Source: Salinivirgaceae bacterium (GTDB taxonomy: Bacteria > Bacteroidota > Bacteroidia > Bacteroidales > SZUA-534). From it: a DNA stretch of 64,000 nucleotides. The notes beneath the pieces are model-generated. The model was not told the origin of the DNA and made no database searches. It worked only from the letters and a program-made list of their open reading frames with translations. Numbering within the stretch: the first letter of the stretch is position 1; every line of letters starts with the position of its first letter. Below, one piece after another: positions 461 through 61,669 of this stretch. Location of the stretch: NCBI GenBank assembly GCA_050251815.1, contig JBFWMB010000006.1:16092-80091 (forward strand). The letters run 5' to 3'. The position numbers and the translations under genes are program-made.

Positions 461-3442
461 ATGTACAGATATATAATACTTATCGGGTTAATTGTATTTG
501 GCGACTCAGCGCTCTGTCAAACCTATATGGACATAAATAGCAGCTATTCATTCACAACCATCAACAAAAATGATGGATTAGCTGATAACAACGTAAGTTG
601 TGTGTACAAAGACTCCGACGGATTTATTTGGTTCGGAACCCGAAATGGATTATGCCGCTTTGATGGTTTTGAATTTAGAGTGTATAGAAAAGGAGACCAT
701 TCGGGTTCGATTTCAGGAAACCGTATTTTGGATATCTGTGAAGATAAACAGGGGAATTTATGGGTGGGTACATATAACGATGGGCTTAACAAGTTTGACA
801 AAAAACAGGAATCGTTTACCCATTATAACGAAAAACACGGCATTGGCAATCGTATAAATCGAATAAAAACACTCACCGACGGAAAAGTCTGGGTTTGTTC
901 AAATCTTGGATTGGCGTATTATCAACCCAATACAAATCAGTTTTTCACCTTTCAAACCAGCAATGAGGCTGGTGCAACCTTACTCTCAAACCACATCTAC
1001 GATATTACCGAAACGGCTGATGGTTCAATTTATATTGCTCCTGAAGTTAATGAAATACAACGACTGAATATTTCCACAAATACCTTTGAAACAATACCTT
1101 ATACCAGACATCCCGAACTACAAAACAATTATAACAAACATATTATTGAAGGGAGTGACGGGCTATTGTGGATTTCAGCCAGTTATCATGGATTGTGTTC
1201 CTATAACCCTGAAACAGGGCACTCAGAACTGTACACAAAAGAAACAAAAAATCTATCAACCAACGTTTTAATGGGTCCTATGGCTATCGATAATTCAGGA
1301 AATATATGGATATGCACGGAGGGTGATGGAATTAATATATTTAACCCCACCACAAAAACCTATCAGCAATTAAAACACAACAAGAATAATCCAGAAGCAT
1401 TAAATTCTGATCATACGTACACCATATATTTTGATGACAATAGCATTGCCTGGATAGGAACCTACGATAAAGGTGTAAACAAAAGCGACCCCTACCAGCA
1501 AAAATTTCATGGTTCGCTTTTCCAATCCAACGATTTGAACGTCTTAAGTGGGTTTTCGGTGCTGGACATTTATGAAGATTCAAAAAAACGCGTTTGGTTT
1601 GGTACCGATGGCAATGGTTTGTATTGTTTTGAAAAAGGAACTCAGCCCAAAAGGGTTATGTACCAAAGCGAACTTGCCCAAAAAGGATTGACCTCAAACA
1701 TAATTACAGCCATTAGCGAAGACCCGTTTGGCAACCTGCTTATTGGCACCTATGCCGGGGGGTTGCATGTATTTAATCCTGAAACAGAAGTTTCACAAAG
1801 CTATTTGAGCGAAAACATCAAAACATCCGGGTTATCGTCGTCGAACATTTGGGAAATTTTAACCGATAGCAAAAAAAGAATCTGGCTGGGATTATTGGGA
1901 ACCGGGGTCGATGAATTTATCTGCGATAGTGGTAAGTTCATTAATCATGGTCCTTCATCGTCCGATAACAACAAAATCGAATTTCCAAATATCATGGTAA
2001 TTCTTGAAGATTACGATGGGGATCTTTGGTTTGGTTCTGAGGGAAAAGGCCTTTTTATTCTTGATAATCAAACCAGAAAAATCCAGCGAATCCCTTACGA
2101 TTCAGTACACAATATAACAACCGAAGGAATAATTAAATGCCTGTTACAGGATCAATGGGGTCATTTATGGATTGGTACCGAAGATGCCGGATTGTTTACC
2201 TTCGACAAAAGGACCAAACAAATTTCCCGCGTGGGAGAAAATGAAGGCCTATTAACGGTGTCGATACAGAATTTGCAGGAAGATAATTTGGGAAATCTTT
2301 GGATTGGCACATCGAACGGACTTTACCGGTATAACCCAAAAACCGAAGCTTTTAATCACTTTGTTACTGATGATGGCCTAACAAGCAATGAGTTTAATCA
2401 GGACGCCATGATAAAACTGAGCGACGGACGCTTAATTGTTGGCACCAGAAATGGAGCCGATATTATTACTCCCGAAAAAATATATTTAAACCAAATTCTT
2501 CCGAAAATTGTATTTACCCGCTTAACCATCCTCAATACCGAAATCCATCCAAAAACAAAGATTAATAAAAGGGTAATTACAAACACCAGTATTACCCATC
2601 TAAAGGAATTGGAATTAAACTGGAAAGATAAAATATTCACCATTGAATTTGCCGCCCTGAATTTTACCCTGCCGCATAAATGCGAATACAAATACCGTTT
2701 AGACGGTTTTGACGAAGATTGGGTACATACCAATGCAAATAGAAGAATAGCAAGCTATTCAAATTTAAAACCTGGAAAATACCATTTTAGGGTAATGGCC
2801 TCCAATAACGATGGAAAATGGGGTAATAACGAATCGTCATTAATTATTACAGTTAAACCCCCTTTTTGGAATACCTTGGTTTTTAAATTATTTGTTGGTT
2901 TAATCTTGCTAGCACTAAGCTATGTTGTATACAAATATCGCATAAATGTTCATAAAGAACGGTTTCTGCAAAAGCAGATTGAACAGGAAAACAAAATTAT
3001 TGCCTTAGAAAAGGAAAAACTAGAATCAGAGCTTAAAAAACTTGCATTTAGTGTAATTAACAAGAACAAACTATTAATTGAACAAAAAAACAAACTGCTT
3101 ACCTTGTCGAATAAGGCTCGGGTAAGTGTTAAAGAGGGTCTTCATAAAATTGTAGAAAGCATTGATGAAGACTTAAATGAAGAAAAAGACTGGGAAACAA
3201 TTGAACCCCAAATTGATAAAGCTTATAATCAATTTGTCACAAAATTAAAGGAACGTCATCCCGATTTAACCGCATCAGAACTTCGTATTGCTGCCTACAT
3301 ACGAATGAATCTTTCCACCAAAGAAATTTGCGAGTTCATGAACAAAACCCAACGGGCGGTTGAAAACGATAGGTACCGATTAAGAAAAAAAATTGGGCTT
3401 GAATCGAACGATTCAATTCAAAACTACCTGCTAAAACTTTAA
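461..3442 (+). CDS. Membrane-anchored sensor/regulator: periplasmic beta-propeller repeats, Y_Y_Y domain, TM helix, coiled coil and LuxR/GerE-type HTH
   Basis: The ORF runs 440..3442; ATG at 461 is preferred over the TTG at 440. It has many W(I/V/F)GT propeller-blade motifs (FIWFGTRNGL, LWVGTYNDGL, LWIGTEDAGL, LWIGTSNGL) and a YKYRLDGFDEDW triple-tyrosine-type region. One TM helix (LVFKLFVGLILLALSYVVYKY) is followed by a C-terminal HTH (LTASELRIAAYIRMNLSTKEICEFMNKTQRAVENDRYRLRKKIG). No HisKA, HATPase or REC motifs were seen. Confidence 0.85.
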   Translation: MYRYIILIGLIVFGDSALCQTYMDINSSYSFTTINKNDGLADNNVSCVYKDSDGFIWFGTRNGLCRFDGFEFRVYRKGDHSGSISGNRILDICEDKQGNLWVGTYNDGLNKFDKKQESFTHYNEKHGIGNRINRIKTLTDGKVWVCSNLGLAYYQPNTNQFFTFQTSNEAGATLLSNHIYDITETADGSIYIAPEVNEIQRLNISTNTFETIPYTRHPELQNNYNKHIIEGSDGLLWISASYHGLCSYNPETGHSELYTKETKNLSTNVLMGPMAIDNSGNIWICTEGDGINIFNPTTKTYQQLKHNKNNPEALNSDHTYTIYFDDNSIAWIGTYDKGVNKSDPYQQKFHGSLFQSNDLNVLSGFSVLDIYEDSKKRVWFGTDGNGLYCFEKGTQPKRVMYQSELAQKGLTSNIITAISEDPFGNLLIGTYAGGLHVFNPETEVSQSYLSENIKTSGLSSSNIWEILTDSKKRIWLGLLGTGVDEFICDSGKFINHGPSSSDNNKIEFPNIMVILEDYDGDLWFGSEGKGLFILDNQTRKIQRIPYDSVHNITTEGIIKCLLQDQWGHLWIGTEDAGLFTFDKRTKQISRVGENEGLLTVSIQNLQEDNLGNLWIGTSNGLYRYNPKTEAFNHFVTDDGLTSNEFNQDAMIKLSDGRLIVGTRNGADIITPEKIYLNQILPKIVFTRLTILNTEIHPKTKINKRVITNTSITHLKELELNWKDKIFTIEFAALNFTLPHKCEYKYRLDGFDEDWVHTNANRRIASYSNLKPGKYHFRVMASNNDGKWGNNESSLIITVKPPFWNTLVFKLFVGLILLALSYVVYKYRINVHKERFLQKQIEQENKIIALEKEKLESELKKLAFSVINKNKLLIEQKNKLLTLSNKARVSVKEGLHKIVESIDEDLNEEKDWETIEPQIDKAYNQFVTKLKERHPDLTASELRIAAYIRMNLSTKEICEFMNKTQRAVENDRYRLRKKIGLESNDSIQNYLLKL

Positions 3443-3665
3443 ATGCCGGTTTATGTATTGTTCCTGGCATTAATAGCCATCAAATATTTTTATTATTCGC
3501 TGTTTTAATGCCTGTTATAATCCGTTGAGAGTTTTTAAGTACCCCCACTTTTTCGTAAGCGAAGTTTTAAGTATTACTAAATTGAGTAAGCCGTATTCAA
3601 TTGTTTAATTTAGATTTTCAAGGCAAAAAAAGAAATTGCGAAACAAACACATAAAACTTATTAAA

Positions 3666-5147
3666 ATGAAAAAGAAAAAAATTAACATTCTGGGATATTC
3701 TCTTTTGGCAGCTGTTTTTGCTCCAGGATGCAGCAATCAGGGTAATCAACAGCTTATAAACGAAACCGAAAATCAACGCAAACATGAGTTTTCAATCGTT
3801 ACTGCAGAACAATACCTCACAGCAAAAGACGGTAATGAACGATTGACTAAAATGGAACGACTAACCTTCGAAGCATTTGATCAACCCGACGAACATTTTG
3901 CAACCCTAATGGTCGACCCAAAAAAAACATTTCAAACCATTGAAGGTTTTGGTGGTGCACTTACCGATGCAACAGCTGAGACCCTAAATAAACTGTCGCC
4001 CGAAAATCAGGAAAAAATCTATACTGCTTATTTCGATAAAAATGAAGGCATCGGTTACAACTTATTCCGGACTCATATTAACAGTTGTGATTTCTCGAGC
4101 CAATCGTATGCCTACGCTGAAGTTGAAGGCGATGTGGAATTAAAACATTTCACCATTGAAAAAGACCTGCAATACCGAATTCCCTTAATTAAAGAAGCCC
4201 TTAAACGAACTGGCAGCGATTTTAAGCTTTTGGCCTCACCATGGAGTCCTCCGGCCTGGATGAAAACCAACCAGAACATGCTGCAGGGAGGTGAATTAAA
4301 ACCAGAATACTATCAAACCTGGGCTGATTATTTTGTTCGGTTTATCGAAGCCTATAGGGCTGAAGGAATCCCGGTATGGGCAGTAACAGTTCAAAACGAA
4401 CCCATGGCGGTTCAAACCTGGGAGTCGTGTATTTTTACCGCAGCTCAAGAACGCGATTTTGTAAAAAACAACTTAGGTCCTTCGTTCGTGAAAAACAAGT
4501 TGTCGGATGTTAAAATAATTGTTTGGGATCACAATCGGGGCATTATGTATCAGCGCGCATCAACGGTTTATGACGATCCGGAAGCAAAAAAATATGTTTG
4601 GGGAACCGGATTTCACTGGTATACCGGCGACCATTTTGAGAATGTAAAACAAGTAGCTGAAGCTTTTCCCGATAAGAAATTACTATTTACCGAAGGCTGT
4701 GTTTTTCCGTTTGATTACCAGAAACTTGATCAGTGGAGTTGGGGAGAACGTTATGGAGAGTCGATTATAAATGACCTAAACAACTCAGCAGTAGGTTGGA
4801 TTGACTGGAACATGGTGTTGGATGAAACAGGCGGGCCAAACCATGTGGCCAATTACTGCTATGCTCCGGTTATCGGAAATACAAAAACCGATGAAGTAAT
4901 TTTCATGAATTCATTTTATTATCTGGGGCACTTCTCCAAATTTATCCGCCCTGGAGCAAAACGTATTATCTGTTCAAGTAACTACGACGATTTAATGGCA
5001 ACAGCTGCAATAAATACCGATGGAAGCATTGTTGTAGTTGCTATGAATAAAACCGGGAACGAAATACCTTTCAAATTATGGATACAGGGAAAAGCGGTTC
5101 AATCACACTTACCGGCCCATGCCATGAAAACTATAATTGTCAAATAA
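3666..5147 (+). CDS. Glycoside hydrolase family 30 (glucosylceramidase-like) lipoprotein
   Basis: ORF 3636..5147; ATG at 3666 gives MKKKKINILGYSLLAAVFAPGC with a lipobox. GH30 motifs present: EGFGGALTDA, ASPWSPPAWMKTN, VTVQNEP (acid/base Glu), LLFTEGC (nucleophile Glu). Confidence 0.85.
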   Translation: MKKKKINILGYSLLAAVFAPGCSNQGNQQLINETENQRKHEFSIVTAEQYLTAKDGNERLTKMERLTFEAFDQPDEHFATLMVDPKKTFQTIEGFGGALTDATAETLNKLSPENQEKIYTAYFDKNEGIGYNLFRTHINSCDFSSQSYAYAEVEGDVELKHFTIEKDLQYRIPLIKEALKRTGSDFKLLASPWSPPAWMKTNQNMLQGGELKPEYYQTWADYFVRFIEAYRAEGIPVWAVTVQNEPMAVQTWESCIFTAAQERDFVKNNLGPSFVKNKLSDVKIIVWDHNRGIMYQRASTVYDDPEAKKYVWGTGFHWYTGDHFENVKQVAEAFPDKKLLFTEGCVFPFDYQKLDQWSWGERYGESIINDLNNSAVGWIDWNMVLDETGGPNHVANYCYAPVIGNTKTDEVIFMNSFYYLGHFSKFIRPGAKRIICSSNYDDLMATAAINTDGSIVVVAMNKTGNEIPFKLWIQGKAVQSHLPAHAMKTIIVK

Positions 5148-8287: not shown

Positions 8288-11215
8288 TTAAAATTCAACG
8301 TTTAATCCCACAATAAATGTTCGGGCCTGTGGATAGGTTCCATAATCAATACCCTGTACACTTGCACTGTTTCCAAAAGCATTCACTTCGGGATCGTATC
8401 CGGAATACTTCGTAAAAGTGAGCAAATTTTGCCCTGTAAAATAAGCGGTTAACTTCTTAATTGCTTTAACGTTATCTATCACTCGGTACGATAAGGTAAG
8501 TGATTTTAGGCGTAAATACGATCCATCTTCAATAAAACGGGAAGAATTCCAAACATTATAAACACTTCCACTGCTTTTGGGAATGGCCCGGGGTATATCA
8601 GTAGCTGTGTTTTCAGGTGTCCAACGGCGCAACACGGCCAAAGACTGATTCTTACTGTCGAACATTCCTTCTAAATCGATCCGGGTGGCATTATAGATAT
8701 CGTTTCCATAACTGCCTTGAAAGAAAAAAGACAAATCGAACCGCTTGTACGTAAGTGTATTGGTTAAACCAAAAATAAAATCAGGTTGTGCATTACCAAT
8801 TATTGTTCTGTCGCCGGGATCGTTAATCCCGTTATTGTTTACATCCCTATAAATCATATCGCCGGTTTCAGAATCTACTCCATCGGCAATGTATCCAAAA
8901 AATGAACCTAAAGATTCCCCTTCCTTTAGTCGAATTATGTCCTGATTGTTGCTATAAATGCGTCCAAAATCATACGATTCTACATAATCGAGAGCAACAA
9001 CCTTATTTCTATTCATCGACAGATTAAAATTTGTTATCCAGTTAAAATCCTCAGAACTCATATTAATGGTTCGAAGGTTTAATTCCAGACCTTTATTGTC
9101 AATCTGCCCGGCATTGGTTAATATCCTGGTTATGGGCAAGGTGCTGGGCAATTGCACATTCAAAAGAACATCGCTTGTTTTTTTAAGGTAGGCATCCAAA
9201 TTAATGGCAATTCGTGAGTTGAACATTGAAATATCGATGCCTACCCCGGTTTGTGCCGAAGTCTCCCATTTAAGGTCAGGGTTACCATAAGTAACCTGAG
9301 AGGAACTTGGTCCTGAAAGCGGATCGGTTGGGGTTCTTCGGTAATAGTTTACCAAACCATAACGGGCGTAATTTGCTATTCCTTCCTGGTTTCCATTAAC
9401 TCCCCAACCTCCCCGTAATTTTAAATCGTTTATAAAACGAACATTCTGCATAAAAGGCTCGGCAGAAATACGCCACCCAACCGAAAAAGCAGGCATGGTT
9501 CCCCAGTGTTGAGCTAGCTTTGATGAACCATCGCGACGAAGACTGGCTGATGCATAGTATTTGCTGTTAAAGTCGTAGGTAACCCTACCAAAAAAAGAGG
9601 TCAAAGACCATTCGTCTTTCGAGGTACTTCCTGAAATGGTATTGGCCGCATTAAGCGTTGTTACCTCAACATCAGTCGGAAAATCTGTTCCATACAAATA
9701 GGAATCGTGCCCGGTAAACTTTTGCATACTGGTACCAATAAGTGCATTGAGGTTATGGTTATTAAAAGCTTTCGTATAATCTACAGTATTCTCCAGCATC
9801 CATGATTGGCTCATGTATTTATCAGCCTGGCCAACCCCATTGTTATTCCGTCCGAAATTGGTCCGGAAGGGATCGAGATAATAATTCCACTGGTGGTTAT
9901 TAATCTCTACTCCAAATCGGTTTTTATAAAACAGTCCATCACTAATTCTTGCCTCGAGCATGATATTACCAAACAGTTGTCGGTCGATGGCCTGTTGATC
10001 AGCACCTTCCATGTAGGCAACCGGGTTTTCCCAGGAAGCCTGAAAAGGATTCGTGTCGAACTGCCCGCTTCCATCGGGGTTATATACTCTTAGAAACGGA
10101 GGCGTATTAAGTGCAGCCATAATTACACCTCCCCTACCTGAACTGGCATTGTCGGGAGTATCTTCCGTTTTTATATTCAACAGGTTAACGCTTGATTTCA
10201 TTTTTAACCAGGGGCGTATCTGGTTGTCGAGATTATAGCGTACCGATATACGATCGAAGCGAGCTGGCCGAACAATACCTTTATTATTTAAATAATTTAA
10301 GGCAAGATAGTACTGCGATTTTTCATTCCCGTCGGAAAACGATAATTGATACGACTGGATTTTACCAGTACCAAATACCTCCTTGTTCCAATCGTTAAAA
10401 TAGGTATCTGTGGGATCCAGCTCTTCACCACGCTCCAGCATTAAATCACGGTATTGCTTGGTATTAAGAACCTCTATGGTTTTGCGGATGTTTGAGATTC
10501 CAAAATAGGTGCTAAAATTCAGTGCAGTTTGCCCTTTTTGAGCTCTCTTTGTAGTAATTATTACCACGCCATTGGCTGCTCTTGCACCATAAATAGATGA
10601 AGAGGAAGCATCTTTAAGGACTGACATCGACTCAATATCATTGGGGTCAATCCCTTTAATGTCTGTAGTAGGTAAACCATCAACCACATACAGTGGTTCA
10701 TTTCCGGCTTCAACCGATGTTGCACCTCTAACCCTTACGGATAGAGCCACGCCAGGTTTTCCCGAGGGTTGAATTACCTGTACCCCGGCAGCTTTACCCT
10801 GAAGAGCTTCAGCAGCAGAAACCATAGGGCGTTCCTTAATTTCATCCTCCCCAACAATTGAAACAGCAGTAGTTAAATCCTTTTTTCGCTGGGTTCCATA
10901 CCCAATAACCACTACTTCATCAAGATCTTTGATATCGGATTGCAATACCACAGAAATAACCGACTGGTTTCCAATTTCTATCTCCTGAGTTATAAAACCA
11001 ATAAAACTGAAAACCAGGATCCCCTTATCTGCTTTAATGGAGAATTTTCCGTCTAAATCGGTTATGGTTCCTGTGGTAGTCCCTTTTAATACTACGGTTA
11101 CCCCTGGAATGCCGACTCCTTCGCTATCGGACACGGAACCGGTAATTTGTCGCTCCTGGGCAGTTCCAGCCAGCGAAAGTCCGGCAAGTATGAAAAATAA
11201 AATTAGCTTTTGCAT
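8288..11215 (-). CDS. susC: SusC-type TonB-dependent outer-membrane transporter
   Basis: ORF 8288..11248; ATG at 11215 gives MQKLILFFILAGLSLAGTAQ. A CarboxypepD_reg-like N-terminus (ITGSVSDSEGVGIPGVTVVLKGTTTGTITDLDGKFSI) is followed by a plug (VVIGYGTQRKKDLT). The C-terminus ends in the terminal Phe of a TBDT barrel. Confidence 0.92.
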   Translation of the reverse strand: MQKLILFFILAGLSLAGTAQERQITGSVSDSEGVGIPGVTVVLKGTTTGTITDLDGKFSIKADKGILVFSFIGFITQEIEIGNQSVISVVLQSDIKDLDEVVVIGYGTQRKKDLTTAVSIVGEDEIKERPMVSAAEALQGKAAGVQVIQPSGKPGVALSVRVRGATSVEAGNEPLYVVDGLPTTDIKGIDPNDIESMSVLKDASSSSIYGARAANGVVIITTKRAQKGQTALNFSTYFGISNIRKTIEVLNTKQYRDLMLERGEELDPTDTYFNDWNKEVFGTGKIQSYQLSFSDGNEKSQYYLALNYLNNKGIVRPARFDRISVRYNLDNQIRPWLKMKSSVNLLNIKTEDTPDNASSGRGGVIMAALNTPPFLRVYNPDGSGQFDTNPFQASWENPVAYMEGADQQAIDRQLFGNIMLEARISDGLFYKNRFGVEINNHQWNYYLDPFRTNFGRNNNGVGQADKYMSQSWMLENTVDYTKAFNNHNLNALIGTSMQKFTGHDSYLYGTDFPTDVEVTTLNAANTISGSTSKDEWSLTSFFGRVTYDFNSKYYASASLRRDGSSKLAQHWGTMPAFSVGWRISAEPFMQNVRFINDLKLRGGWGVNGNQEGIANYARYGLVNYYRRTPTDPLSGPSSSQVTYGNPDLKWETSAQTGVGIDISMFNSRIAINLDAYLKKTSDVLLNVQLPSTLPITRILTNAGQIDNKGLELNLRTINMSSEDFNWITNFNLSMNRNKVVALDYVESYDFGRIYSNNQDIIRLKEGESLGSFFGYIADGVDSETGDMIYRDVNNNGINDPGDRTIIGNAQPDFIFGLTNTLTYKRFDLSFFFQGSYGNDIYNATRIDLEGMFDSKNQSLAVLRRWTPENTATDIPRAIPKSSGSVYNVWNSSRFIEDGSYLRLKSLTLSYRVIDNVKAIKKLTAYFTGQNLLTFTKYSGYDPEVNAFGNSASVQGIDYGTYPQARTFIVGLNVEF

Positions 11216-13585: not shown

Positions 13586-13783
13586 CAAATCAAAACAGTT
13601 ACTTAGGTTAATTGAATCAGGTACGTACCGGAATGAAAAAAGATCCCGATGTAAATTGAATTAGGTACGTACCTGAATTAAAAAAGGTCCCGATGTAAAT
13701 GAAAACTGGTACGTACCAAAATGAAATCAGGTAAGTACCGAAATCAAATTTGGTGCGTACCTAAATTAAAATGGGTACTTAGG
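13586..13783. repeat. Tandem array 2: 9 units of the same 22-bp repeat as 132-395, same orientation
   Basis: Cores at 13598, 13620, 13642, 13664, 13686, 13708, 13730, 13752 and 13774, a constant 22-bp step. Perfect GGTACGTACC at 13620, 13664, 13708. A 65-bp block (13610-13674) is identical to 222-286, and a 31-bp block (13675-13705) is identical to 330-360. Confidence 0.9.
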
Positions 13784-52124: not shown

Positions 52125-55100
52125 CTATTTTGCAAGTAGTATTTGTTCTGTGAAAAGATGTTCGGGTGATTGTATTCTTAAAATATAAACTCCCGCTTTA
52201 GCCAACGACAAATCGATGCAAGTTTCAAGCTGATGTAATTCGGCGTGCATAATAACACTTCCTCTTATATCGGTAATTGTCAATGTTGTACCCAGAGTTA
52301 CCTGATGTAGTAGTATGGTAAATTCACCCTGACTTGGGTTTGGATAAATACTACTTACCAAAGCACGCTCTGTGTTGATTCCAACAGCAAGCAACACTAC
52401 GTCGACAGTAAGGTCGGCATCAACCACCGAGAGGGTACCCTGATACACTTCAAACGCCTCCGGCTTACTGATGGTAAAGATTGCTTCGCTTACCGGCATG
52501 ATGTCGGTAAATACTGCCTTACCTTCACTATTGGTAAGCTGACTTTCGCTGTTAAATTCAACAGTAGCGCCTTCAACCGCATTTCCATCTTCATCGAGTA
52601 CATTAAAAGTAACCGCATAGGTTTCTTTCACAGGAAGGGTGAAATCGACCGAATATGTTGCCTGGGTTACGCCGTCTTCGGCAGTAACCGTAATTACTGC
52701 TATACCGGGAAGCGCTGAAGCCTGAACAACTTCAACTGTAGCTGCGGCATCGTTGGCAAGAGCAGCAATTACCGGAATGGTGGTAGTACCCTCAGGCAAT
52801 TCAACTTTGTACTCGAAGGTTGTTGCTTCAAAATCTTCCAGTTGAACTCCATCCATGGTGATGGTGCTTAGGGAAGCATCGCTATTGGGTGCCAGGGTGA
52901 AACTAACCGTGTAAGTCAACTGGGTTTCGCCGTCTTCGGCGGTTACCAGAATACTTGCCGCACCCGGAAGAGATGCTGCCTGAGTTATGGCCAGTGAAGC
53001 AGCAGCATCGTTCGGACTGGCTGCCACAACCGGCAAGTCTGTTGTTCCGTAGGGCAGTATAACCTGATAATCGAAGGTGTTTACATCAAAACTGCTGATG
53101 GCTTCACCGTTCACGGTAATTCCGTGTAAGGTGGCATCATTATTTGGTGCCAGTGTAAACATAAGCGTATAAGTAAGTTTGGTTTCGCTGTCTTCGGCAG
53201 TAACTACAAGGGTTGCTTCACCGGGCAGTTCCGTTGCCTGGGTAATTTGCAGGCTGGCATTGGCATCGGTTGTTGTGGCATCAACTTCTGGTATGGTGGT
53301 CGTTCCATACGGCAGCTCCAGCTCATATACAAATACATCGGCAGCAAAAGTTGCCAGGGGAACTTCGTCGACAATTATACTGCTTAAGCTGGCGTCGTGA
53401 CCTAATGACGCATCCACAAAGGTAACTTTGTAGGTAAGCACGGTGGTATTGTCCTCGGCTGTTACCTGAATGCTTGCAAATCCGGGAACTGCTGTTGCCT
53501 GAACAATATCAACAGAAGCCTTAGCATCATTGGCCACGGCAGAAACCACAGGAACGCTTTCGTTAGAAACAGGAAGCACATACTCCAGGGTACCCGGAGC
53601 AAATCCGGTCAGTGATTGCCCGTCAACCAGAATATCGCTTAATGTAGCATCGGTATTTAAAGCCACACTGAAATGGATGGTGTAGGTTAGCGTGGTTACC
53701 ATGTCTTCGGCGGTTACTTTTACCGAAGCGTCGCCTGGCAACTGAAGCACCTGGGTAAGCACAACCTGGGCTTTAGCATCGGCAGCCACAGCTGTGATTA
53801 CCGGCAACGTTGTAGTTCCGTAAGGCAGCACCACCGAATATTCATACTGGTCTGCTGCAAAACCTTCCACCGTTGTGCCATTGTAGCTTAAGCTGCTAAG
53901 GGTAGCGTCGGTATGGTAAGGAGTAACAGTAAACTGTACGCTATAGGTTTGTTGAGTAACTCCATCCTGGGCAGTTACTTTAACGCTTGTAGTGCCGGGC
54001 AGGCTTGTGGCTGCACTAATCTCGATACTTGCATTTGCCTCATTAGCTGTGGCAACAAGCACTGGGACATCGGTAGTACCTGCAGGCAGGCTTACCGAAT
54101 AAGTAAATACAGAAGGATCAAAACCCTCCAGTGGCGAACCATCAAGAGTTATTGCACTCAGGCTGGCATCGTTCGACGGGAACGACATATCGGCAGCAAA
54201 ACGCGCCGTAATATAATTTCCGGTCGTCCGGCTATGGGCTATTCCGGTAACCTTTCCGGATGTCTCCGGAAGTAAAGTTCCCATATAGTCGGCATCGTAG
54301 AAATTGGTGTAGAAGTTGGCCGAATTTGTCTGATCGCTGAGGGTATAACTGGTTCCCGTGGCAAATGTTATGCTACCATCGGCCTGGCTAAATGTTAGGC
54401 CTTCAAACGTAAGCAATTCTGCTTCATAGGCTTCAAAATCGGACGCAAAGGCTTCCAGCGTTACCACTTCGGGAATAATTTCGGTTCCGTCACCCGAACT
54501 TGCACCCGGATCGGTAGAGGGTACCAGCTGTAACATGCCTCCATATTCCGTTAATGAGCCTTCAATACCACTTATATTGGCTCCAATGGTATAGCTTGAA
54601 GTGATTTTACCAGCCAAATCGTCGATAAGGACAGCGGCCGTAGCATCCTGAATAAACTTCTGGTTGCGATAGCTTTGTACCATGGTAACGGTAGCATTTC
54701 CGGCAAATTTAACTTTGGCCCCGGCTCCCTGATTACGCAATGCAGCCAGCGTTTGGGGGACAGCTATGATTTCAAAGTCGCCACTTACCTCGTTTATCGT
54801 AGCATTATCGACGGCACTGATGCGTACCTTATAGTTGTTTCCGTAATAGCTGTCAGCACCCACGGTTAAGGCAACACTACCGGTAGTAGCGTCGGTCGAT
54901 GCCAAAAGATCGGTCCACACATCGAAGTTGGGTACATAAACCTCAACTCTAATGTTTGCTATGTTCGCAGCGTTCCATGTCATGGTAACTTCGTCGCCGG
55001 CATAGAATACTTCGCCACCGACGGGATAAGTCAGGCTAAGGCTTTGTACCGAAGCGTCGATTGTAGTAAAGCTTGCCTGTGCACTAAGATTAAGGTTCCC

Positions 55101-58100
55101 GGCTTTATCCTGAACCGCATCGGCTTTTAGTACCAGGGTGTACTGGGTACTGTTGTCCAAAGCTGCGGTCGGAATCACGGTAATAAGCCTTCCGCTGATA
55201 GTAGCACTAAATGCTACGGTATTTGCCGGAGTGGCCGTTTCGTAACACTCGAGCAGCGCGCTTACATCGGCCCCTTCGGCAAAGGCCAGGCCGCTGGCAT
55301 CGAATACATTCTCGTTAAAGGTGAGCGTGGGATGTACATTTACAAACACCTCGTTTGTATTGTTCAAGGGTTCAAAAGCAACAACCGGACCTTCGGTATC
55401 GGGTGCCTGAACGTGTAAACCCAGGTAAGCAACCTCATCCTGAGCATAAACCAGCCATTGGGAATCGTCAGTATTGGTTCCGGCCGATAGCGCCCAGTCG
55501 GTGGTACCAATCTCGATGGGTGCTTTACGTACCAGGGTTTTGTCGGCGGTAGCATTGGCTACTCCGGCCACCGGCCAGGCACTTCCGGGATCTTCACCCA
55601 CGTTGCCAATGACATCAATAAGGACATCGTTTTTAAACAAGCCTAACGCATCGTCGCCATTAAAATTGGCCACACCCGAAGTAATATCGCCCACATCTTT
55701 AATGGTCTGAACGGCACTTGAGTTGTAGATAACATATACATCGCCCGCAGCAAGTGTTCCGCTTAATACCAGGGTAGTTCCCCAGCTTGCACCGTTGGTG
55801 GCCAGCTTAACCGAATAGGCCGATAAATCGGCATCCGTTCCGGTGGGATTGTAAATCTCCAGGGCCTTGTTGCTTGAAGAACCTTCGAGGTATTCCGAGA
55901 AGAACAATTCACTGGTTGGGGCTTCATCCAGGGTAAGCGCATAGGTTTTTTGAGTAGTACCATCCTGGGCGGTAACTATTACCTGATAGTTGCTTAACAG
56001 ATCGGTGGCTACAGTGCTGCCATCAGACTGGTACACTTCAAAACTGGCATAGGTTGCCGGAGTCAGGTTGGCTTTAAAGGCTGCCAGGCTGGTTCCGTAA
56101 GGAATTCCGGTAATTGTGTTTTCGGCATCGTTAACCAGGTAGTGGCCTGAGCTTACAAAGGCTTCAGTGCTTGCCGCTTCCCAGGTAAAGTGGATGGTGT
56201 AGGTTTGGGTGGTAATTCCGTCCTGAGCGATAACTTTTACGCTGCTTGTTCCGGGCATCGATTCGGCCACGGTCAGCTCCGCCGAGGCGGTGGCATCGTT
56301 CAGGGTATAAGTAAGCCCAGGAACGTCTGCCGTTCCGTAGGGATATTCTTTAGTATAAGCATATACCTCAGCACTGAATCCATCGACAGCCACCTCGTCG
56401 ATAAACAAGGCACTTAAGCTGGCATCAGTATTCGGAGCCTCAGGCGTAACACTAACCTGCCAATCCTGACTGGTAATTCCGTCTTCGGCAAGAATGCTGT
56501 AGGTTACGGTGCTTTCAAAATTGATGGCGGTTACGCCACTTTCCTGGGGAGTTGTTCCCACTTTTGCCGTTGCTCCGGCACTCAGGGTAAAGGTGGCCAC
56601 CAGGGCACTGCGATCGCTTCCGTAAGGAACCTGGATGCTCAGGGTATGGGCATCGGCATCGATGGTTGCCTCTCCGGTCTGGCCGGGAACGGCAAAGCTC
56701 AGGATATCGGTCTCGTTGTTTACAAAAGCTATTTTATTTATGGTATAGGTTTTTTTGGTCAAGCCGTCTTCGGCCACACAAATTAGCTGATAGCCATCGA
56801 GCAAATCGGTAGCCAGGCTAAGTCCGTCGGCCTGATACACATCGTACGAAGCGCCGCTGAGAGCAAGCACATTGGCTTTAAAGGTCGCCAGGTCCTCGGA
56901 ATAAGGAACATTGCTGATGGTGCTGTTGTCGTTATCGACGGCGTAAACCGCTGAGGCGACTTCAGCCACCGTTCGGGCTTCGCGCACGGTAAAGGTGGTG
57001 CTGCTTTCGGTATTTTCGTTTCCGGCGGCATCTTCCACGGTATTGGCCAGCAGACTCAGGGTATATTGCATACCCAGTTTTAAGTCGCCGGTGGGATCAA
57101 CTACCATTTGCTGACCCGACAAAGTGGCCACAAAAGGCAGCGTATTGGCGGGCGTAGCTGTTTCGAAGAAGGACAGCTTGGCGGCCAAATCGTCGTTGCT
57201 GATGGCCGAACCATCGGCATTAAAGATTTCCTCGTCGAAACTTAGCGTGATATCGGTAGTTTCAGTAACCTGTGAAGATCCATTCAGGGGTGAAAAACTT
57301 ACCACGGGAGCTACATTATCGGTAAACTGAACGTGAGAACCTAAATATGATAATTCATCCTGATCATATACCAGCCATTGGGAATCATCAGCATTCGTTC
57401 CTGCCGAAGAGGTCCAGGAGATGGTTCCCATATTAATTGCGGCCTTTCGCACCAGGGTTTGGTCCACTGTACCGCTGGCATCGTCGGCAACCGGCCAGGC
57501 TGTTCCCGGGTCTTCGCCCACCTGACCAATGACATCGATAAGTATATCGTTTTTAAACAAGCCACGGCATCGTCGCCATTAAAGTTGGCCACACCTGAAG
57601 AAATGTCGCCCACGTCTTTAATAGCCTGTACAGCACTTGAATTGTAGATAACATACACCTCGCCGGCTGTTATGGTTCCACTTAAACCAAGGGTTGTTCC
57701 CCAGTCGGCACCATTCGTGCCCAGCTTAACGGAATAAGCCGACAAATCGACTTCACTTCCGGTAGGATTGTAGATTTCCAAAGCTTTGTTGCTTGAAGAA
57801 CCTTCGATGTATTCCGAAAAGAACAAATCAATAACCGGCTCATTTACCGTCAGGGTATAGGTCTTTTGGGTGGTGCCATCCTGAGCGGTAACCACCACCT
57901 TGTATCCGCTTAAGAGATCGGTTGCCAGGGTAGTCCCATCGGCAAGGTAAACATCGAAAGCAGCACCTGTAGCAGGCGTTAATGCTGCTTTAAAGGTGGC
58001 CAGGGTTGTTCCGTAAGGTATGTCGGTAAGGGTTTCGTTCCCATCGTCGACCGTATAGCTGGCCGAAGTTACGGTGGCCTCACTGCTGGGTGCTGCCACG

Positions 58101-59530
58101 GTAAAGTTGATGCGGTAATCTTTTTTGGTGGTGCCATCCTGGGCAGTAACCTCAACGCTGGTAGTACCCGGCAAGGAGGACGCATTGGTTTGAATTACCG
58201 TAGCGGTGGCATCGCTTAAGGAATAAGTAACGGTTGGAACCGTGCTGGTTCCGTAGGGCAACTCCACATCGTAAGCAACCGTTCCGGCATCGAAACCGGC
58301 AATGGTGGAGCCATCGACTAGTAAGTCGGTTAAGGTGGCATCGGTACTGGGTATTTCTTCCGAAACACTTACCGTCCAATCCTGGGTGGTAAGTCCGTCT
58401 TGTGCTGTAATGGTATAGGTAAGGTCTGATGAAAAATCGTTGGCGCTTATTCCGCTTTCCTGCGCTGTGGCTCCAACCGCAGCTGTTGCCCCGGCCGATA
58501 GTTCAAAGGTGGCAATCAGATTGGTAACATTGGTACCATAAGCCACGTCAACAGCAACCGTATGAGCTACGGCATCAATTGTTGCCGCTCCGGTTTGTTC
58601 CGTAAAGCTAAAGGCGGTAATGTCGGTTTCATCACTTGCAGTTGTGGAAATTGTAATATCAGCATCACTTTCATCTGAAATGGTTATGTTTGAATAATTA
58701 TCAGAAATTCGAATCCTATAATTATTTCCCTCCAAACTTCCTGGAACAAACCAACTGTAGGTTCCATCATTTGTTTCATCATCTGCAATTAAAACATATG
58801 AAGTTCCATTGTAATATTCAATATCAATTGTTGAGGAATATCCAGTACTTGTCCATATAATATCCTGTGAAGTTCCAGATTGCCATATTTCTCCACCATT
58901 AGGAGACGTAATAGTCAAAACTGGTAAAGCATTAACACTCCCGTATACTATTAAATCATCACCTGTTCCATCACCAATTCCTCCAGAACCAGATGTGGCT
59001 TCTGCATACATATAGATCCTGAAAGTTACAGGCTCACTAATGTCTAAATAGGAAAAAGTAAATGTGAAGTTTTGGGTAGATGTGCCATCAGTAATTGAAT
59101 ATATTTGGTCTAAATTACTTGCAAAATTATCTAAAGAACTTCTAAGTGCTATAGCACTCGGACCCGTGGATGACCTTTGCAATTGTAGATATATTGAACT
59201 TATTGTAATCATATATCCTGGACTTGGTGTAACTGTAAAAGTCATAAAATCATCTCCAGACACAGCATCTTCAATAGAGGTTAATGCCCAACTTGTCGCA
59301 TTAAATCGACCACCATTAGCTGAAGCAGTAAGCCCTGCACCTCTTGAGATGGTAGAAGTAGAAAGATTTTCATCATTATATTTTGAGCTCGCTGTTTCTT
59401 CATTTCCTGCTAAAGCAGAGAACTCAAAACTTAAAATCTGCCCCCATCCCTGGGAACTAAATAACAATAGCAAAAGCAAACCCGGCAATAAACGCCGCAG
59501 TCCGCTGGGTAAAAGCGTAGTTTTTTTCAT
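52125..59530 (-). pseudogene. Giant T9SS-secreted surface protein, about 2468 aa if repaired, split by a 1-nt frameshift at about 57561-57563
   Basis: ORFs 57341..59530 and 52125..57560 overlap. The upstream ORF has a signal peptide (MKKTTLLPSGLRRLLPGLLLLLLFSSQGWGQ) and the downstream ORF has a T9SS C-terminal domain (SIYPNPSQGEFTILL...GVYILRIQS...). The junction falls inside a lamin-tail domain whose intact paralog is at about 55640. The span is 7406 nt, so adding 1 nt gives 2469 codons. Confidence 0.85.
52640..54180 (-). repeat. Six tandem units of about 250 bp inside the CDS, each encoding a cadherin-like beta-sandwich domain
   Basis: The repeated protein pattern is DA(S/T)LS.(I/L)..DG..L..F......Y.V.LPYGTT..P.V.A...DA.A...I.QA..LPG.A...VTAEDG.T..TY.V.F. 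Two more single copies lie further 5' in the gene. Confidence 0.85.
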
Positions 59531-59778
59531 CTGTGTAATTTTAGTTGTATGTATTGAATCCTAATCTGGTTGTTCGTCTGATTACACGTTGTTTTTCAAA
59601 GGAAATGGTTTGGCAATTTATGCTATTTTACCAAACTAAACAATAGCTGCGTTTATTTTTCTGGTGTTTTTTCCTGTATTTTGTATTATTTTCGTAACAC
59701 CTGTAATTATACTACACCCGGTTCAGAAACGATTTGCCTAAATTCGGCTTATGCCTTCTCCTTAGCCCGGGTGCCTGT

Positions 59779-60065
59779 CCCACCGTTGGTCGTTCTGGGG
59801 CTTTAGAACCCCTTGTTGGGCAGCAGCAACTGATTCAGGGGCTGAAAAACCCGTTGTGGATCGGCAGCAGCAAATTCAGGGCTTGAAAATCATCCCGCCA
59901 GTCAGCAGGAAGGAATTCAGGGCCTGAAAAACGCCCTGTCAGTCAGCAGGACAAAATTCAGGGTCTGAAAAACGTCCTGCTCACCGGCAGCACGAAATTC
60001 AGCGGCTTAAAAACGTGCTGCCAGCGGGCAGCATATTGATAATCAGCAAAAAGCCATATTTTTCT
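59779..60065. repeat. Array of seven 41-bp-phased units, five well conserved, each a composite palindrome around TTCAG-N3-CTGAA
   Basis: ATTCAG anchors lie at 59833, 59874, 59915, 59956 and 59997 (exact 41-bp step), with degenerate flanking units at 59792 and 60041. Outer arms are complementary within each unit but differ between units. Confidence 0.85.
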
Positions 60066-60201
60066 TCGTGTTCAGCAAAATAATTGAAAGGGCCAAACAG
60101 CAGCCGGCTTACCGTGAAGCAGCCAGGCTGCCGATGAGGCCGCATTTATACTGGTCTTTGCTTATTATCAGCTTTTTACCTGCTTTTTTTTTGGCGATAT
60201 A

Positions 60202-60233
60202 TTTGGTGGTAATCACGAATTGCCGTAATTTTG
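60202..60233 (+). promoter_or_regulatory. Candidate Bacteroidota promoter (-33 TTTG at 60202-60205, -7 TAATTTTG at 60226-60233) for the 245-aa ORF
   Basis: Both consensus elements are present with a 20-nt spacer, about 50 nt upstream of the ATG at 60285. Confidence 0.45.
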
Positions 60234-60284: not shown

Positions 60285-61022
60285 ATGATTAAACTTTTCA
60301 ATTTATTTCAGTTGCGTGCCGGCGAGTTGATGCAATTCTGCCGCGACGCCGTAAACGTTCTTCTGGCTAACGATTTGGTTGGCCTTGAAGTAAATGAACC
60401 GGGAACTGCTTTTATCAACCGTTTCGAAAGTGCCAAAAGCACTTACAGCCTGGCAAAAGGCAGCCTAATCACCAAAGAGCTGGTAGCTATCGACCGCCGT
60501 CGTGACACCGGCATCCGCGGTATCCTGGAGATGCTTGACGCCTATGCCCTGCACTACGACCCTAATGTGGTAGCTGCAGCGGAACGTATAAAACAGCAAT
60601 TTAATCGTTTTGGGGTGAAAATCGCCCGCCAGAATTACCAGACGGAAACCAACAATCTTTTTAGTCTGGAGGAACAGGTTACTGGCGACACCTCGCTGCA
60701 AGCCGACTTTGCGCTGGTTCATCTAAGCGATTGGTACAATCAGCTAACGGCAGAAAACCATTTATTCTCGGATCGCTATGCGGCCCGGGTTGCCGAAACG
60801 GTTGAACAGGGTGGTGGTAAATTTATGGAGGAACGTCCGCTGCTTATTGAGGCCTTCCGCGAATTTTGCCAGCATGTGAATGCACACATCACCCTTAAGG
60901 GAGATGCTGCCTACAAGGTTTTGACAGAACCTATAAATGTGCAGATTGAAAAATACCTGTTAACCGTTAAAAACCGACAGGCCGTTCCGGAAAATCCCGA
61001 AGACGAAACCGTCGAAATCTGA
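60285..61022 (+). CDS. Hypothetical helical protein (orphan gene with its own promoter and terminator)
   Basis: The 245-aa ORF has an ATG start and coding-like composition. No motif was recognised with confidence. Confidence 0.65.
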   Translation: MIKLFNLFQLRAGELMQFCRDAVNVLLANDLVGLEVNEPGTAFINRFESAKSTYSLAKGSLITKELVAIDRRRDTGIRGILEMLDAYALHYDPNVVAAAERIKQQFNRFGVKIARQNYQTETNNLFSLEEQVTGDTSLQADFALVHLSDWYNQLTAENHLFSDRYAARVAETVEQGGGKFMEERPLLIEAFREFCQHVNAHITLKGDAAYKVLTEPINVQIEKYLLTVKNRQAVPENPEDETVEI

Positions 61023-61323: not shown

Positions 61324-61669
61324 TGCGCTGCATGATAACAACGCTTTTCATGGAACCTTTGCAGCTTGCAGCGCTTTGCATGGGGTAAACCAAACCCCGG
61401 GTTGACACCCGGGGCTATTATTGTAGCACCCCTTCGGGGTTTGATACCCTTTGCGGATCATAAGAAGCCGGTAATTCATGGCAAGCTTGCAGCGCTTTAT
61501 GCTTCGGAGCAAATTAATACTAGCGAGCTATAACTCCTTTGGGGTTTTAGCCCGAAAGGTCTGCTGCCAATTTGAACCTTGCCTCCCGGCTTCTGTATCA
61601 CTGAAAATCTGAATCACAGCATCACGGATGCCAGCCCGCCGTAAGGAGGTTTACCCCTACCACAACCGG

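Follow-up and report, generated by a model that had tools for sequence, protein, structure and literature searches.

ParR/parC repeats occupy 10–20 bp per dimer, tandem ARG boxes 21 bp, and plasmid iterons approximately 22 bp. Repetitive extragenic palindromes (REP), bacterial interspersed mosaic elements (BIME), and the BOX families are dispersed, each genome containing tens to hundreds of copies, and they are tied to no single gene family. In type III toxin–antitoxin systems, ToxI consists of 5.5 repeats of 36 nt upstream of toxN (literature of Fineran, Blower, and Salmond). The subject of this study is an array of 41-bp palindromic units directly upstream of a DUF6261 gene. It is located in a 64,000-nt stretch of a Bacteroidota chromosome (hereafter, the window), whose closest public relative is a Salinivirgaceae metagenome-assembled genome (MAG). 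The array is apparently an undescribed, phylum-wide element of Bacteroidota that stands upstream of DUF6261 genes.

The array was identified in the window by two scans. Tandem Repeats Finder (TRF) detected a 41-bp period at 59833–60015 (4.5 copies, 74% matches, score 154) and a second phase of the same period at 59862–60033 (score 160). The core TTCAG-N3-CTGAA, scanned with at most one mismatch, was found at 59834, 59875, 59916, 59957, and 59998, a step of exactly 41 nt. Both scans thus confirmed the array that had been proposed in a sequence-only reading of this DNA. In the whole window, nine core matches were found against 2.2 expected, and this number was reached in none of 100 shuffles. 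When up to three mismatches were allowed, a 28-nt unit pattern matched the five array sites only, with 0.01 matches expected. The coordinates of the units and of the other features are summarized in the table.

Each unit consisted of GCAG-N3, an A-run, TTCAG-N3-CTGAA, a second A-run, N3-CTGC, and a 6-nt linker. It formed a nested imperfect palindrome centered at unit offset 17, with pairs at (17−k, 17+k); the core occupied k = 2–6, the A-runs, which lie on the same strand, k = 7–10, and the outer arms k = 11–18. A palindrome that repeats periodically has dyad axes of two kinds; the second dyad here, CTGCC-N4-GGCAG, fell at offset 37.5, where neighboring units join, and its distance from each core was 20.5 bp. 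The details given by the sequence-only reading were reproduced: the core was perfect in U1, U3, and U4, with a G-T pair in U2 and a mismatch in U5, the outer arms included GCAGGAC/GTCCTGC and GGCAGCACG/CGTGCTGCC, and an alternative helix, CAGGGC/GCCCTG, was available in U3. Among 13 distinct units from three related loci, 77.5% of the cells paired in register, compared with 23–44% when the partner was slid by 1–3 columns, and the palindromic character of the units is far above chance.

Features of the window and of the arrays upstream of other DUF6261 genes. Positions are those of the respective locus.
Feature	Locus	Position	Strand	Details
Five head-to-tail units, 41 bp each	Window	59823–60027	+	Starts 59823, 59864, 59905, 59946, 59987
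Decayed distal unit U0, 41-bp register	Window	59782–59822	+	Degenerate core TTCTG-GGG-CTTTAGAA; repeat search and pair table
Terminal degenerate unit	Window	60028–60068	+	GCAGCATATTGATAATCAGCAAAAAGCC, then a T-run
Predicted Bacteroidota-type promoter of the DUF6261 gene	Window	60202–60233	+	Consensus scan
DUF6261 (PF19775) gene, 245 aa	Window	60285–61022	+	Pfam E 5.5e-29
Type IX secretion system (T9SS) adhesin-like gene	Window	Ends 59530	−	LTD, Cadherin-like, Big_5, Por_Secre_tail
Array, 41 bp	L019	380–547		4.1 copies; P0003, 36% identity to window
Array, 41 bp	L020	381–535		3.8 copies; P0004, 36% identity to window
Array, 41 bp	L021	1317–1469		3.8 copies; P0005, 34% identity to window
Array, 41 bp	L022	2726–2871		3.6 copies; P0152, 23% identity to window
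Array, 41 bp	L024	2634–2840		5.0 copies; P0091, 27% identity to window
Array, 41 bp	L025	1033–1159		3.1 copies; P0098, 26% identity to window
Array, 41 bp	L027, Tenacibaculum vairaonense	2645–3447, then 3438–3591		19.6, then 3.6 copies, one register; P0181
Array, 42 bp (two 21-bp halves)	L033	2896–2986		2.2 copies by TRF; P0164, most distant

The gene downstream had been regarded as an orphan; however, it belongs to the Pfam family DUF6261. A full HMMER search with the window protein gave 1,128 representatives (clusters at 50% identity) at E ≤ 0.001, the nearest one outside the window clade being 36% identical. Genomic context with a usable upstream region was taken for ten independent DUF6261 lineages (23–89% protein identity), among them Salinivirgaceae and Tenacibaculum. 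In nine of the ten, a tandem array was located directly 5′ of the DUF6261 gene, with a period of 41 bp in eight and 42 bp in the most distant one. By locus, TRF detected the 41-bp arrays in the window, L002, L003, L019, L020, L021, L022, L024, L025, and L027. The copy number was mostly 4–5 and ranged from 3 to 23, with the maximum in Tenacibaculum. The distance from array to ATG was 73–257 bp in most lineages and approximately 410 bp in Tenacibaculum. In L033, approximately four units stood in the 42-bp register, compared with the 2.2 copies counted by TRF. The sole examined lineage with no TRF match was L028 (P0030), where the best self-similarity lag was 42 (identity 0.57, compared with ≤0.45 in shuffled sequence), which suggests a decayed, AT-rich remnant of a 42-bp array. 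In a uniform lag scan, the best lag was 41 or 42 in all 12 loci, with identities of 0.57–0.97 compared with ≤0.50 in shuffles. The association between the array and DUF6261 is near certain. The array is not unique, since its layout recurs at other DUF6261 loci.

DUF6261 was the only gene that accompanied the array. The flanking genes varied by lineage, comprising an adhesin and PolA, HTH_3 and Por_Secre_tail, Lactamase_B, Vsr and HPF, or TonB-type receptors. As the neighboring genes differed in every lineage, the conserved module is the array plus the DUF6261 gene, and the adhesin is incidental. The adhesin was found beside the array in the window clade only, while in other lineages the array was always 5′ of DUF6261, whatever gene stood on its other side. 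Accordingly, a role of the array as a leader or regulatory element of the adhesin was rejected.

The unit sequences could not be aligned between lineages, except for GCAGCA/TGCTGC, which was common to the window, L019, and L021. Nevertheless, the unit of every lineage contained one strong GC-rich palindrome of 13–19 bp. These palindromes included TTCCGCC-CAGC-GGCGGAA, TTGCTGCA-N3-TGCAGCAA, TCCGCAAA-G-TTTGCGGA, TTCCCTGCA-C-TGCAGGGAA, TTCCTCC-N5-GGAGGAA, TTCTGT-N7-ACAGAA, and TTTTACG-CA-CGTAAAA. Their span was 18–19 bp in six lineages, even though the arms varied from 6 to 9 bp and the central spacer from 1 to 7 nt, and their ends were often TTC(C)/(G)GAA. Conservation in relatives, which had been proposed as a check, was thus found for both the 41–42 bp period and the palindromic character.

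Close relatives were compared with the window in an alignment of their loci. L002 is the syntenic locus of the Salinivirgaceae MAG, with a DUF6261 protein 89% identical to that of the window; its array has six units in exact 41-bp register, with cores at 9511, 9552, 9593, 9634, 9675, and 9716, and at both loci the genomic context is of the housekeeping type. L003 is a contig from the Joint Genome Institute (JGI) with a 99% identical DUF6261 protein and an array of five units. The promoter-proximal and terminal degenerate units were kept between these strains, while the distal units were rearranged even within the 99%-identical pair. The terminal unit was nearly identical in L002, and similar sequence (..ATAAATCAG..) followed the arrays of L019 and L021. 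When window 59720–59830 was compared with L003 730–900 and L002 9340–9500, the window lacked approximately 60 bp and differed in the distal unit, and L003 resembled L002 at this end rather than the window. The distal end of the array is a hotspot of recombination or indels. In Tenacibaculum vairaonense, the array (L027) comprised 23 near-identical units over approximately 950 bp, with a higher-order block duplication among the distal 19 units; the microsatellites AGTTAAGG (13.6 copies) and ACCTCAC (5.9 copies) were located at 3622–3735 and 3812–3852, between the array and the DUF6261 gene.

Such variability raises the explanation that the array has no function of its own, being either a variable number tandem repeat (VNTR) that is tolerated or, after decay, what is left of a dispersed repeat of the REP/BIME or miniature inverted-repeat transposable element (MITE) type, with regulation of the adhesin as a further variant. 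This is consistent with the differences in copy number and distal units between near-identical strains, with the expansion in Tenacibaculum, with the near loss of the array in L028 while gene and promoter remain, and with deviations between units that resemble neutral decay. In addition, the window holds another palindromic tandem family, of 22-bp period, at two places. However, no further copy of the unit was found in 64 kb at up to three mismatches, and the dispersed-repeat identity was rejected. When a two-core pattern was searched in 185,579 GTDB species genomes and JGI metagenomes, a homologous 41-bp array was found at the syntenic Salinivirgaceae locus only; the other matches were microsatellites, unrelated repeats or duplications, or had the wrong spacing. 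Moreover, neither chance nor hitch-hiking can place a 41–42 bp array 5′ of DUF6261 in nine of ten lineages with unalignable sequences and different neighbors, and the adhesin variant applies to the window clade only. It was concluded that the array is real and selected, and an explanation by tolerated repeats or by the adhesin is improbable.

The position of the array relative to the promoter was then considered. The array is upstream of the gene's own predicted sense-strand promoter, which separates it from the ATG. This promoter is a consensus prediction, obtained as a perfect match to the Bacteroidota −33 TTTG/−7 TAnnTTTG pattern, with the −33 TTTG at 60202–60205, a 20-nt spacer, and the −7 box TAATTTTG at 60226–60233, 59 nt before the ATG. 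The same scan of the minus strand at the window locus gave no match. L002 has an identical predicted promoter. In L019, L021, and L028, the last of which is poor in array sequence, a −7 box likewise precedes the ATG, the distance being 57–60 nt over these loci, L002, and the window. In L019, L021, L022, and L025, the arrays extended to the −33 region.

The comparisons show the element, its link to DUF6261, a conserved period, a sequence that turns over, and a place upstream of the predicted promoter; an action on duplex DNA as a helically phased platform is inferred. Our preferred, tentative reading is that the array may serve as a phased protein-binding platform controlling DUF6261 transcription. 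On this reading, the array in the window is the local copy of a conserved cis-element that is paired with the DUF6261 gene in a module of two parts. As 41 bp would correspond to four turns of 10.25 bp, all palindromes would lie on one face of the helix, where a dimeric or oligomeric protein could bind cooperatively and control transcription of the gene; the binder would have changed its specificity together with the array. A ruler on duplex DNA is favored by the period fixed at 41–42 bp (42 being 2 × 21), the fixed palindrome length, and the recurrent TTC(C)/(G)GAA half-sites. The platform is also favored by the gene's own promoter downstream of the array, the inconsistent strand of G.U pairs, the uncompensated deviations between units, and the conservation of the promoter-proximal units.

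Several findings weigh against this platform reading. The −7 box was not at a fixed distance from the last palindrome (72, 95, 95, and 222 bp), and the Tenacibaculum array is oversized for an operator. Compensatory change in the outer arms of the window clade is not predicted by sequence-specific half-sites. Furthermore, A exceeded T on the gene-sense strand in all eight arrays scored, while the flanks did not show this; a purely symmetric duplex site is therefore insufficient as an explanation. Finally, no conserved neighbor other than DUF6261 is available as a co-evolving binder. Since the binder must have changed along with the array, the DUF6261 protein is the only visible candidate in the sequence, which would imply autoregulation, although its acidity argues against this. 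DUF6261 proteins had a median isoelectric point of 5.2 and a net charge of −8, which weakens the case for the protein as the array binder, and no DNA-binding fold or motif was recognizable in them by model, fold, or profile searches.

The DUF6261 protein itself was modeled with AlphaFold2 using a 90-sequence alignment. The model was all-alpha with nine helices (predicted local distance difference test, pLDDT, 94; predicted template modeling score, pTM, 0.75). Foldseek comparison of the model with PDB and BFVD gave no structural neighbor at E ≤ 0.001, and a profile search against PDB sequences gave no relative. PADLOC, PHROG, and NCBIfam contained no match, and the sole Pfam match was DUF6261. 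The searched literature on DUF6261, PF19775, and 41-bp or 41-nt tandem repeats in Bacteroidetes and Flavobacteria contained nothing relevant. Longer members had no informative extra domain; one (P0074) carried a CarboxypepD_reg-like tail, which may be a run-on with the downstream gene. A CarboxypepD_reg-domain protein followed DUF6261 in three lineages (L027 5375–7513, L028 5149–7593, and P0074, where it is called as a fusion). These proteins are probably TonB-dependent receptors, the L028 copy also having a Plug domain, and their presence may be a coincidence, such receptors being abundant in Bacteroidota. A thiamine pyrophosphate (TPP) riboswitch was located at L028 4835–4931, between DUF6261 and the receptor gene.

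The interpretation given in the sequence-only reading was supported in part, but its argument from compensatory change to a folded structure proved weak. Among the 13 units, three outer-arm pairs changed on both sides, in eight cells, a result reached in 4 of 500 shuffles; this control is inflated, since the 13 units are related. In the window clade, the outer-helix covariation score was 0.214 on the minus strand (0/500 shuffles) and 0.142 on the plus strand (15/500). The outer helix also paired better on the reverse strand (84.6% compared with 72.1% on the plus strand), because many of the plus-strand mismatches are A.C. Covariation in the window clade was present but modest and limited to three outer-arm pairs, and the evidence for a folded structure is weak. 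In the principal palindromes of ten arrays, 66 deviations from the array consensus were one-sided and three were compensated, which is about chance. By G.U bias, the window clade, L021, and L025 favored the antisense strand, whereas L019, L022, and L024 favored the sense strand. Likewise, unit folding energies and the counts of G.U versus A.C disagreed between lineages, and no consistent RNA strand was obtained. The outer-arm covariation thus stood, while the deviation counts and the inconsistent strand spoke against the wider argument.

These data bear on the alternative that the array is transcribed into a repeat RNA of hairpins and A-rich linkers that partners the DUF6261 protein, as in a type III antitoxin or another repeat-RNA–protein complex. 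The geometry of the RNA–protein assembly would then set the unit length. This is conceivable but unlikely. It would account for 3–23 direct repeats of fixed length on the same side of one gene in every lineage, for their lineage-specific sequence, and for the outer-helix covariation. Every unit can form a GC-rich hairpin, the inner stems were wholly replaced between lineages while self-complementarity was kept, and the A over T excess of the gene-sense strand, with A-runs beside the stems, would suit a transcript. Behind the terminal unit, T-runs were also present in the window, L019, and L021. On the other hand, the better-pairing strand is inconsistent relative to the gene, deviations within arrays are uncompensated, and the DUF6261 gene has its own conserved predicted promoter downstream of the array. 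No conserved promoter was found 5′ of the arrays by the consensus scan, a candidate in L002 and L003 being degraded in the window, and no consistent terminator followed the arrays, hairpin and T-run candidates being seen in some lineages only. An identity as a ToxN/AbiQ, CptN, or TenpN endoribonuclease was rejected, as Pfam, PADLOC, PHROG, NCBIfam, and PDB folds gave no support for it and the protein is acidic and all-alpha. In addition, DUF6261 was not found by tblastn and contig scans in the plasmid, phage, and viral-contig (IMG/VR) collections, where type III systems are common, and the locus is syntenic between the window and L002, with housekeeping surroundings. In a wider form of this alternative, DUF6261 and the 41-nt array would be a previously unrecognized, phylum-wide RNA–protein (or hairpin-DNA–protein) module in Bacteroidota. 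[quoted passage not shown]

The whole region folded better than its shuffles on both strands (z −3.3 and −5.1). This would also suit an action of the palindromes as DNA structure, in which hairpins or cruciforms extruded upstream of the promoter would either respond to supercoiling, by sensing or buffering it, or bind a structure-specific (HU-like) protein, and in which no co-evolving binding specificity would therefore be needed. Sequence turnover with self-complementarity kept, GC-rich arms amid AT-rich tracts, partial compensation in the outer arms, and the lack of a G.U strand preference would all be accounted for. However, arms that measure 5–9 bp and contain many mismatches are short for in vivo extrusion, and uncompensated mismatches are common. 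The 41–42 bp period, the recurrent TTC(C)/(G)GAA ends, and the tie to one gene family would also be left unexplained. A purely structural role is thus very unlikely, and the phased duplex-DNA platform is retained as the preferred, tentative reading.

Further identities were tested and rejected. Rfam 15, at gathering and permissive thresholds, gave chance-level matches only over the arrays (≤26 bits against thresholds of ≥45) in the window, L002, L003, L019–L022, L027, L028, and L033. The array is not a CRISPR, as had been stated, since the units abut, the whole 41 bp repeats with no unique spacers, and no adjacent cas genes were present at the examined loci. Rho-independent terminators were also excluded, in agreement with the earlier remark that the hairpins lack U-tails: the stems have A-runs after them on the plus strand and T-runs before them on the minus strand. 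A coding repeat was rejected, since 41 is not a multiple of 3 and stop codons occur in all frames; no open reading frame (ORF) of at least 50 aa crossed the array except a 50-aa TTG ORF clipping its edge. An iteron origin of plasmid or phage type was rejected because the neighbors are housekeeping or surface-protein genes and DUF6261 is absent from the collections named above. A sigma-54 enhancer (upstream activating sequence) was rejected as well, since a search of the DNA from array to ATG at 11 loci gave no −24/−12 promoter (GG-N10-GC). Intrinsic curvature was rejected as a general feature, since A/T-tract phasing (approximately 10.3–10.5 bp) was clearly significant in L033 only. For the AA/TT fourth harmonic, column-shuffled controls reached the observed value in 0 of 300 cases in L033; L019 was borderline (0.03), and the other nine arrays were not significant.

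Other features of the window were also noted. The adhesin-like gene was split into overlapping ORFs on the minus strand, 52125–57560 and 57341–59530, of 1811 and 729 aa. The split was also present in an independent Logan assembly (L001), while the related MAG has a single 2377-aa gene; a frameshift, a phase-variable join, or a pseudogene could be behind it. Another tandem family, unrelated to the array and of 22-bp period, was located at 133–385 and 13610–13778, consisting of the palindrome AGGTACGTACCT and an A-rich spacer, with variant units containing AAAAGATCCCGATGTA. Its sites were upstream of a Reg_prop/Y_Y_Y (hybrid two-component-like) gene and between groEL and a PKD-domain gene. Unlike the 41-bp array, this family is dispersed, with two loci in 64 kb. 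The Rfam family Acido-Lenti-1 (RF01687) matched above its gathering threshold (41–45 bits against 37) at 61395–61441 on the plus strand, at L002 11121–11167 and 11512–11558, and at L003 2465–2511. The match was located in the gene-free gap of approximately 900–1300 bp between DUF6261 and polA, twice in L002, and none was seen at the other DUF6261 loci scanned with Rfam.

DUF6261 is widespread in Bacteroidota, and neither a known function, a fold relative, nor literature was found for it; thus, the array is a first functional handle on the family. As the unit length was held at 41–42 bp through repeated replacement of the sequence, the question arises of what it is that gauges a length of 41 bp. 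Should the array be a phased operator, its promoter architecture would be deeply conserved and unusual in its long period, in a phylum where transcriptional regulation has been little mapped. Should it partner a protein as RNA or hairpin, it would represent a new class of repeat-RNA/protein system. Experiments are feasible because Tenacibaculum vairaonense, with its 23-unit array, is a cultured host.

The statement in the sequence-only reading that no described element has this layout held for the searched libraries and literature, although type III antitoxins and phased operator or iteron arrays are close in layout. We propose the class "DUF6261-associated 41-bp arrays", defined by a 41–42 bp period, one palindrome in each unit, and a position 5′ of a DUF6261 gene and upstream of its promoter; the window shows all of these parts. 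Like CRISPR, the arrays are regularly spaced and partly palindromic, but they have neither unique spacers nor cas genes beside them. Like REP/BIME clusters and the pneumococcal BOX element with its tandem boxB, they are intergenic, tandem, GC-rich imperfect palindromes of approximately 35–45 bp with strain-variable copy number; unlike these, they occur at one locus per 64 kb and at one in the relative's genome, and always 5′ of DUF6261.

The likeness in layout to type III toxin–antitoxin systems (toxIN, cptIN, and tenpIN) is striking. In both, a single gene is immediately preceded by several direct repeats of one length (36 nt in ToxI and 41 here), and the window and its relatives show the type III layout of repeats of approximately 34–45 nt directly upstream of a protein gene. 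The repeat sequence is lineage-specific, the layout is conserved, and A-rich stretches lie between the structured parts. However, DUF6261 is acidic and all-alpha with no PADLOC match, and a predicted promoter of the gene stands between the repeats and the ORF. The units here are simple palindromes and not pseudoknots, and searches of plasmids and phages did not find the family. Compared with phased operator and centromere-like arrays, the unit here is approximately twice as long (four turns), up to 23 units are present, and no recognizable ribbon-helix-helix, helix-turn-helix, or Rep protein, partition ATPase, or replication gene stands alongside in the chromosomal housekeeping context. Nevertheless, as in those arrays, the sites are placed at whole helical turns upstream of or overlapping the promoter of the linked gene, the sequence co-diverges with the locus, and the palindromes suit dimers.

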